Source: Chlamydiales bacterium (GTDB lineage: Bacteria; Chlamydiota; Chlamydiia; Chlamydiales; JBDQID01). From it: 10,165 bases of DNA. The stretch covers positions 1 to 10,165 of the forward strand of contig JBLFWS010000122.1 in the NCBI GenBank assembly GCA_047611865.1. The letters are read 5' to 3'. Shown here in pieces: positions 8,490 to 9,284 of the stretch (positions within the stretch are counted from its first letter, which is position 1; every line of letters begins with the position of its first letter). Below the pieces are notes generated by a model. The model saw only the letters and a program-made list of their open reading frames with translations. It searched no databases and had not been told where the DNA came from. Position numbers and translations under genes: made by a program.

Positions 8490-9284
8490 TTAACCGAGAA
8501 ACTGTAATCCCGATTGTAGCAAACCATTGGTCTGGGTAATGATTGACTGGCTGGCACTCAAGACCACCTGTTCTTTAGTATAGTTTGCCGCTTCAAGTGA
8601 AATATCGATATTCCTAATAAAGTTTTCTGCATTTCCCAGCTGTAAAACATATTCTCTACTGTGGTCTAGCAACCTTTCTGTCTGTTGAGAATTATTACCT
8701 ATCTTGCCCCTGTAAATATTCAGGCTGGTAATACGTGAGGTCAAACTGAGAATAGCAGATGATGCACTTGCCAGTTGACTCAAGGTCATTGACCCAAATG
8801 TCAAGGTAGCCAAGCTAATACTGGAAAGAGTTACAAATTCTGTAGCTCCTATTCCAATCCTCACATCAATACTTCTTCCAAAGAGTGAAATGTTATTGTA
8901 CCTTCTCAGATGAAGTTGCGAAAATTCATTCTCTAAAGCCTGAAATTCCGCATCCAAAGCAATTCGATCATTGGTATTTTTGGTTAAATCTAAAGCAGAT
9001 GAAGCTAAATCTGTCATCCTCTGAAGGATTTGTGAGGCATGAAAAACCGTCTCATCCTGAGCGCCTAAATAACCCTTTGTGTATTGCAGCCCATCAAGGA
9101 GTTTATTAGCTCCTGTGATACTTGCTTTCCACCTATCGGCAACGCCCAGCTCACCTGAACCATCAGCACTTGTAGGCATATTCGAACCGGTCGCCAACTT
9201 TTGAGCCGATTTACCCATATTCCTAATATTCTGTGTATATGGCACATACAACTGATTTGCAATACTATTGTTCTTGATAAACAT
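8490..9284 (-). CDS. fliC: Flagellin, minimal (264 aa, essentially D0/D1 only) and divergent
   Basis: N-terminal domain: QKLATG, ILQRMTDLA, DRIALDAEFQAL, YNNISLF. C-terminal domain: RGKIGN, AENFIRNIDISLEAANYTKEQV..ITQTN..LQFLG. Start reassigned to ATG 9284, which has GGAGG 5 nt upstream. The ORF-track start at 9350 lies inside a hairpin. Confidence 0.88.
   Translation of the reverse strand: MFIKNNSIANQLYVPYTQNIRNMGKSAQKLATGSNMPTSADGSGELGVADRWKASITGANKLLDGLQYTKGYLGAQDETVFHASQILQRMTDLASSALDLTKNTNDRIALDAEFQALENEFSQLHLRRYNNISLFGRSIDVRIGIGATEFVTLSSISLATLTFGSMTLSQLASASSAILSLTSRITSLNIYRGKIGNNSQQTERLLDHSREYVLQLGNAENFIRNIDISLEAANYTKEQVVLSASQSIITQTNGLLQSGLQFLG

Follow-up and report, generated by a model that had tools for sequence, protein, structure and literature searches.

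The window analysed here is the whole of contig JBLFWS010000122.1 (C122; 10,165 nucleotides), one of the 272 contigs of a 3.59-Mb Chlamydiales assembly that is estimated to be 95.5% complete with 2.5% contamination. On its minus strand lies the gene studied here, which very probably encodes a functional filament subunit: a core-only flagellin of a chlamydia-specific clade, and one of three 264-residue paralogues in a flagellated member of the Chlamydiota.

8490 to 9284, minus strand: coding sequence of the small (D0/D1-only) flagellin, stop codon included, assigned from its translation, Pfam, an AlphaFold2 model and Foldseek.

The open reading frame (ORF) starts with an ATG at 9284 and ends at 8490, giving 264 residues and a stop. 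Flagellin_N (PF00669) matched residues 3–135 with 41 bits against a cut-off of 26.6, and Flagellin_C (PF00700) matched residues 182–263 with 24 bits against a cut-off of 23, a narrow pass; the two paralogues of the same length in this genome scored 25.9 and 30.5 bits for Flagellin_C. About 45 residues separate the two domains, and the middle domain is almost absent, as the initial annotation had described; the two strings that it quoted, LATGSNMPTSADGSGEL and QRMTDLAS, are both present in the translation. Further upstream in the same open frame lies an ATG at 9350, which would give 286 residues. The start at 9284 is the better one, because the conserved block begins at this methionine in all 38 other rows of our alignment of relatives (A1), two of which have short N-terminal extras, and because a GGAGG lies 5 nt upstream. 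A Pfam scan of nine other ORFs of the window found no flagellar family, in agreement with the initial annotation. These ORFs encode an ABC transporter, an aldo/keto reductase, a histidine phosphatase, a CesT-family chaperone and five proteins without a match.

An AlphaFold2 model built on a 39-row alignment (mean pLDDT of 80.2) predicts helices at residues 7–32, 45–97, 104–125 and 171–263 and a beta-hairpin at 139–153, that is, a D0/D1 helical bundle with a D1 beta-hairpin as in solved filaments. In Foldseek searches the model matched filament subunits of Roseburia hominis (9hpz, 270 residues) and Kurthia (6t17, 276 residues) with a TM score of 0.84, and those of Leptospira, Shewanella, Caulobacter and the Pseudomonas core with scores of 0.79–0.84; the top matches were flagellins only. 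When a profile of the clade was compared with the Protein Data Bank (PDB), 75 sequences matched and all of the 60 matches listed were flagellins, the best of them over their full length (9hpz, E = 5.6e-36; 6t17, E = 2.5e-33). Small size as a novelty was considered and rejected, given that flagellins of 270–286 residues build solved filaments; the 'minimal' build is normal for a filament-forming flagellin.

The initial annotation had also set two motifs against their canonical forms. In A1, the segment that follows ND0 has the consensus RRLATGEKxPTAADGGGELGVADRW, in which G33 and G42 are invariant and P37, T38, D41, G44 and E45 are at least 90% conserved, whereas the solved core-only flagellins 9hpz and 6t17 have LSSGYKINRAADDAAGL or LSSGFKINRAGDDAAGL at this position. 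The altered flg22-like segment is a trait of the whole small clade. The large chlamydial flagellins also depart from the canonical linker motif, differently and more mildly. The 'TLR5 site' is not strongly divergent, because Q-R-x-x-(E/D)-L-A is retained (consensus QRMSELAA; QRMTDLAS in the window copy). Of the 69 columns with at least 90% conservation among the other 38 rows, the window copy matches 66, and its three changes (A/S, F/Y and L/I) are conservative.

A search of a protein collection returned two tiers of relatives. The upper tier consists of 38 clusters with 43–81% identity, all of 261–271 residues except three, two of which are truncated; two clusters are named 'MAG: flagellin [Chlamydiales bacterium]'. 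After a gap in identity, the lower tier consists of ordinary flagellins, and the description of the protein as divergent was borne out: sequences outside the chlamydial clade are no more than 36% identical to it in partial alignments and no more than 33% along the full length. Among species-representative genomes, relatives were found in a Chlamydiales bacterium (59% identity) and a Waddliaceae bacterium (45%), in a search with one peptide pattern that returned two loci and is unsuited to counting. Metagenome contigs searched with the protein yielded one locus, which is unrelated (29% identity).

We placed these proteins in a tree of 85 rows and 301 of 983 columns (LG+G4, quick search, with SH-aLRT support only). 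It comprised small chlamydial flagellins (30 rows, of which 18 came from genomes and 12 were taken from the 36 metagenomic rows of A1), complete large flagellins (19), degenerate variants (2), FlgL proteins (7, including that of E. coli) and non-chlamydial flagellins (27: 25 of 80 listed, one from a metagenome locus, and FliC of E. coli); ORFs truncated at locus ends were excluded. The small chlamydial flagellins formed one clade (SH-aLRT of 99). Within it, the window copy was sister to a metagenomic protein of 81% identity (SH-aLRT of 100), and this pair fell in a six-row clade (SH-aLRT of 99) together with both other copies from its own genome. Because the tree does not resolve how the small clade relates to the two large chlamydial clades or to other phyla, we make no claim on origin. 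A 507-residue flagellin (genome G145, contig C103, locus L040) nests in the small clade beside a small copy of the same genome (SH-aLRT of 98), which suggests that the small-type core gained an insert at least once; the protein sits on a long branch (0.92) and its placement is unsure.

The initial annotation had called the gene 'stand-alone', which is true of the 10-kb contig and not of the genome. Flagellin_N had 12 matches in the genome, among them the three 264-residue copies, five flagellins of 580–640 residues and a true FlgL. The other two small copies, on contigs C227 and C268, are 67% and 68% identical to the window copy. Contig C21 encodes, in one direction, FlgF-like and FlgG-like rod proteins, FlgA, FlgH, FlgI, a rod-binding protein, FlgN, FlgK, FlgL and FliW, along with the large flagellins, four in tandem (608–639 residues) and one of 581 residues on the other strand; it also encodes a UPF0242 protein, a family that we take to be chlamydial. 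The search of the genome that the initial annotation had proposed thus found FlgE, FlgK, FliD, FliS, MotA-like proteins and other flagellins. FliS, FliD, FliG, FlgE, CsrA and four MotA/ExbB-family matches are encoded outside C21. There are two FHIPEP (FlhA/SctV-type) genes, one of them split over two contig ends. The use of a flagellin also requires a hook, junction, cap, export gate, chaperone and motor, and genes for all of these are present in the genome. With this full flagellar gene set, 12 flagellin-domain matches and chlamydial nearest relatives, a flagellated chlamydial lineage with dispersed flagellin paralogues, one of the two options first offered for the gene, is supported.

Two further relatives in this genome are degenerate or atypical. 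On C85 (8212–9012, locus L012), a protein of 266 residues has the N-terminal domain only and lacks the canonical C-terminal helix; its gene lies near genes for a Maf-like (MptE-like) protein, a sulfotransferase and a glycosyltransferase. On C35 (5706–7911, locus L011), a protein of 461 residues with Flagellin_N only is encoded immediately behind the genome's other CesT-family chaperone gene. The flagellated genome G001 has an orthologue (33% identity), which is separated from the chaperone gene there by about 480 bp, and proteins of this type were found in 2 of 61 sampled genomes, with one weak partial match in addition. Two Maf-like (MptE-like) proteins of about 645 residues are encoded on C227 and C228 (loci L013 and L096), one of them beside the small flagellin of C227 with a MORN-repeat gene in between. 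Maf-like genes beside flagellin-family genes hint at flagellin glycosylation.

To place the gene within the phylum, we scored a sample of 400 genomes of the Chlamydiota (one further genome was unscorable). Eight of the 400 had any flagellin match; full-length small flagellins were present in seven of these eight and large ones in all eight, and no small flagellin was found in the other 392. A genome of the same family (G401, 68% complete) had six matches, three of them in tandem. The small clade is not indispensable for a chlamydial flagellum, because one of the eight genomes, G236, has flagellins but showed no small one.

The neighbourhoods of the small flagellins were compared over 73 ORFs in seven other genomes. 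A peptide deformylase gene (def) adjoins the small flagellin or flagellins in four of them (G104, G289, G398 and G001); in G001, secG and tpiA follow def, and in G398, tpiA lies two genes past it. The C268 copy of the source genome has the exact order flagellin–def–secG–tpiA. The small clade is thus anchored beside def–secG–tpiA in five genomes from five families. Because the def neighbours recur across genomes and the C268 copy is syntenic with them, we conclude that the clade is old within the flagellated chlamydiae, with a home locus beside housekeeping genes, and that the copy in the window is a duplicate that lies dispersed from it and has diverged further. Directly beside the small flagellin genes in two genomes of different families (L051 in G104 and L056 in G001), we also observed a gene for a signalling protein with GAF and HD_5 (HD-GYP-like) domains.

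The region upstream of the window gene (9285–9750) is 466 nt in length, which is unusually long, and is strongly structured. The following features may bear on the expression of the gene, and the last line gives like sites elsewhere in the genome:

9290 to 9298, minus strand: ribosome-binding region ACACGGAGG, 5 nt before the start codon, with an ACA-N-GGA word.
9323 to 9364, minus strand: 19-pair hairpin in the 5' leader, found by a terminator-like scan, which holds the in-frame ATG at 9350 and the first GGAGGA word.
9618 to 9643, minus strand: tentative sigma-28-type promoter, TTTAGTGT and CCGACA with a 12-nt spacer, 339 nt upstream of the start codon.
C21 position 30157, C106 position 6311 and C250 position 1832: further ACAYGGAGG sites in the genome.

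ACA-N-GGA is the kind of word that CsrA binds. The word ACAYGGAGG is uncommon, with 27 occurrences in the genome. Six of them precede ORFs of at least 60 residues, and four of these six are in a flagellar context: the flagellin of the window, the FlgG-like gene, one ORF that directly follows flhA and another on the hook–motor contig. Related words, ACAYGGAGGTT, precede small flagellin genes in four other genomes. ACAYGGAGG may be a CsrA site shared by flagellar mRNAs. Because FliW and CsrA are both encoded in the genome, such a site would tentatively fit the flagellin–FliW–CsrA partner switch known from Bacillus subtilis.

The leader of 356 nt folds with z = −6.19, and none of 100 shuffled sequences was as stable. 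Its hairpin is a candidate attenuator, stabiliser or regulator site. The 19-pair hairpin encloses a decoy-like GGAGGATG, and the upstream region also contains a run of eight C and, at about 9408–9428, a short hairpin with a T-run. The register of the candidate promoter, AGT with CCGAYA, is shared with the upstream regions of all five large flagellin genes (AGT-N13-16-CCGAYA), and the CCGAYA core lies upstream of 14 of the 24 flagellin-family genes examined, compared with 179 of 2,557 ORFs genome-wide. These counts covered 260 nt upstream, and the match in the window, at 339 nt, lies beyond that. The strict sigma-28 pattern precedes 23 of the 2,557 ORFs. For 17 of these, which include transporter, Tex, Pth, GcvT, ankyrin and kinase proteins as well as proteins without a family match, no connection with motility is evident, and those that fit motility are only the five large flagellins and one Maf-like gene. 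The promoter evidence is weak because the pattern is not specific genome-wide.

Several observations weigh against the view that the window gene encodes a working filament subunit. Flagellin_C lies above its cut-off by one bit only, and the ND0–ND1 segment, which departs from the canonical flagellin motif, is the weakest part of the model (pLDDT below 50 at residues 37–43). The window copy has the longest branch of the three paralogues (0.21 + 0.10, against 0.09 and 0.11) and lies outside the ancestral def–secG–tpiA locus. Genome G236, which is 94% complete, showed no small flagellin, all eight candidates there having been scored with the window protein. The export and polymerisation of the small flagellin are predicted, and, given its long structured leader, the gene could encode a minor or differently regulated isoform.

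One alternative is that the gene is a redundant paralogue drifting out of use, intact but of slight or no importance to the filament. The genome has at least eight flagellin genes, this one included. Of the three small copies, the window copy has diverged most and lies away from the ancestral locus, and degenerate relatives already exist on C85 and C35. Yet the frame is open over its full length, the clade-conserved columns are kept with the few conservative changes described above, the 81%-identical partner in another assembly is itself full length, and the ribosome-binding site is strong. We therefore consider drift improbable.

The initial annotation had also offered that the flagellin was repurposed as an injectisome substrate or appendage, in which case it would be served by the CesT-type chaperone encoded next to it. 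The window contains the following genes on that side, and a repeat further away:

7457 to 7942, plus strand: CesT-family chaperone gene, from Pfam.
7954 to 8436, plus strand: ORF for a proline-containing protein of 160 residues without a family match, 11 nt after the chaperone gene.
5745 to 5913: palindromic, MITE-like dispersed repeat (about 170 bp) in the gap that separates the aldo/keto reductase gene from the ORF after it.

The chaperone gene and the 160-residue ORF, which adjoin the small flagellin, plausibly form a chaperone–effector pair, and an injectisome is carried by all chlamydiae according to excerpts of Koestlbacher 2021 (PMC8242063). The small clade, however, was seen only alongside large flagellins, with no instance in the remaining 392 scored genomes, and none of the 73 ORFs that surround small flagellins in seven other genomes matched CesT. 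The chaperone family, which 390 of the 400 genomes carry, has no tie to flagella, and in the window the CesT gene and the flagellin are convergent, so that they cannot share a transcript. Because of this phyletic pattern and the pan-chlamydial spread of the chaperone family, we disfavour repurposing for the injectisome, which seems very improbable. If any flagellin relative was drawn into chaperone-dependent secretion, the 461-residue protein of C35 is the better candidate. The window chaperone is about 30% identical to the CesT-family protein on C35, a diverged paralogue, and had no match among solved structures in a sequence search. At 251–2760 on the plus strand, an ORF of 726 residues and an overlapping one of 110 residues have no Pfam or NCBIfam match; they are effector-like solely in the sense of having no known family.

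Less probable still is that the flagellin is foreign, mis-binned or chimeric DNA from an ordinarily flagellated bacterium. The assembly is fragmented into its 272 contigs with some estimated contamination, and the join of the two halves of the window at the repeat (about 5745–5913) rests on the assembler. Six public runs were listed, with no RNA run that holds the sequence among them; three DNA runs labelled ice metagenome contain 97–100% of the sampled words and may be the source of the assembly. In three public runs, two contig pieces that break at the repeat cover the window, but the piece that spans 5884–10165 is unbroken, has no differences and carries the flagellin together with the CesT-family gene of nearly pan-chlamydial distribution. 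The two halves have equal depth in all three runs (59.8/58.4, 13/11.8 and 8.85/8.33). The repeat itself is found at 47 loci on 39 contigs of the source genome, with a depth about 28-fold above that of the flanking DNA, and it is a point at which assemblies of public runs break; raised depth was also seen over the first ~100–140 bases of the window. Contig G+C lies within a narrow range (0.376–0.453), the nearest relatives are from Chlamydiales or Waddliaceae, and of the two paralogues in the same genome one lies in a locus syntenic with other chlamydial genomes.

That the protein is an FlgL-like hook–filament junction protein is hardly credible: its end domains are common to FlgL and flagellin and it matches the FlgL model TIGR02550 with 33.4 bits, but this is far under the cut-off of 127.2, six flagellin models score higher, and the genome has its own FlgL of 316 residues, encoded beside FlgK, which scores 196.6 bits. 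The grouping with FlgL of which the initial annotation had warned was not seen: the seven FlgL rows form a separate clade (SH-aLRT of 95), apart from all 78 flagellin-type rows. A test of five other flagellated chlamydial genomes gave a single FlgL match in each, and flgK is not in the 10-kb window, the FlgK–FlgL pair being encoded on C21. These comparisons identify the window protein as a flagellin and not an FlgL.

If the protein is a filament subunit, as we favour, homology with studied flagellins suggests how it would be used. FliS would hold the small flagellin by its C-terminal helix, and the flagellar type III export gate (FlhA and its partners) would export it. Polymerisation would then take place beneath the FliD cap, on the distal side of the FlgK/FlgL junction, either together with the flagellins of 580–640 residues or adjacent to them. 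Translation would probably be coupled to export through FliW and CsrA, and glycosylation may occur through the Maf-like enzymes encoded beside two other flagellin-family genes. For the first of these steps, we modelled the complex of the window protein with FliS from its own genome. The model scored 0.76, compared with 0.00 for the best of three controls, and reached a mark that was attained by 116 of 157 solved complexes and by 2 of 215 mismatched pairs. Runs shared at least 73% of contacts, the partner had a pLDDT of at least 65, and the predicted interface lies mostly on flagellin residues 203–264. This pass, which may come from memorised structures, indicates likeness to the solved flagellin–FliS complexes (5maw and 6gow) and not binding.

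Core-only flagellins with solved filaments (9hpz, 6t17, Shewanella FlaA/FlaB, Caulobacter FljK–N and Leptospira FlaB) resemble the window protein in length class and fold and in lacking an outer domain, and several organisms with core-only flagellins use more than one flagellin per filament. The solved proteins are 17–24% identical to the window protein in structural alignments and have the canonical motif in the ND0–ND1 linker (9hpz and 6t17), whereas the clade of the window protein has a linker sequence of its own. Unlike the hosts of the solved core-only flagellins, its host belongs to a phylum long held to be non-motile. Within the genome, the large flagellins of C21 have end domains and a candidate promoter register in common with the window gene, but they form separate clades in the tree, have about 350 extra residues and are encoded in the flagellar cluster, with FliW and FlgL as neighbours; genes of small flagellins are either dispersed or adjacent to housekeeping genes. 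FlgL shares the flagellin-type terminal helices, but the window protein fails its cut-off and belongs to another clade.

Flagellar genes in chlamydiae have been reported since 2017, when Collingro et al. (PMC5604735) described the same phenomenon in marine chlamydial single-cell genomes, with a full flagellar apparatus beside the injectisome; the words flagellin and FliC do not occur in the main text of that paper or in two of its supplement files. In excerpts of later papers, flagellar genes are described in further chlamydial lineages (PMC8242063) and flagellar motility is called ancestral in Chlamydiae (PMC12199754). As for surveys of flagellins, excerpts of one name Chlamydiae only among rare phyla (PMC7018530), and those of another leave them unmentioned (PMC11532411). 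In the texts returned by a full-text literature search, we found no account of chlamydial flagellin classes or of a small-plus-large repertoire.

Chlamydial flagella are thus already known, and the conserved pairing of small with large flagellins is the one modestly new point. What the window gene and its relatives add is a clade of core-only flagellins found only in chlamydiae, usually in several copies and almost always kept together with much larger flagellins. It is possible, though we hold it as a speculation with less than even chances, that both classes have been kept since before the families diverged because both are needed, as segments of a composite filament or as filaments of different life stages, and that the window gene, with its long structured leader and diverged sequence, encodes a third small isoform under its own regulation instead of a redundant copy. 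The question raised is which flagellin class builds which part of the filament in a bacterium that otherwise lives inside host cells.

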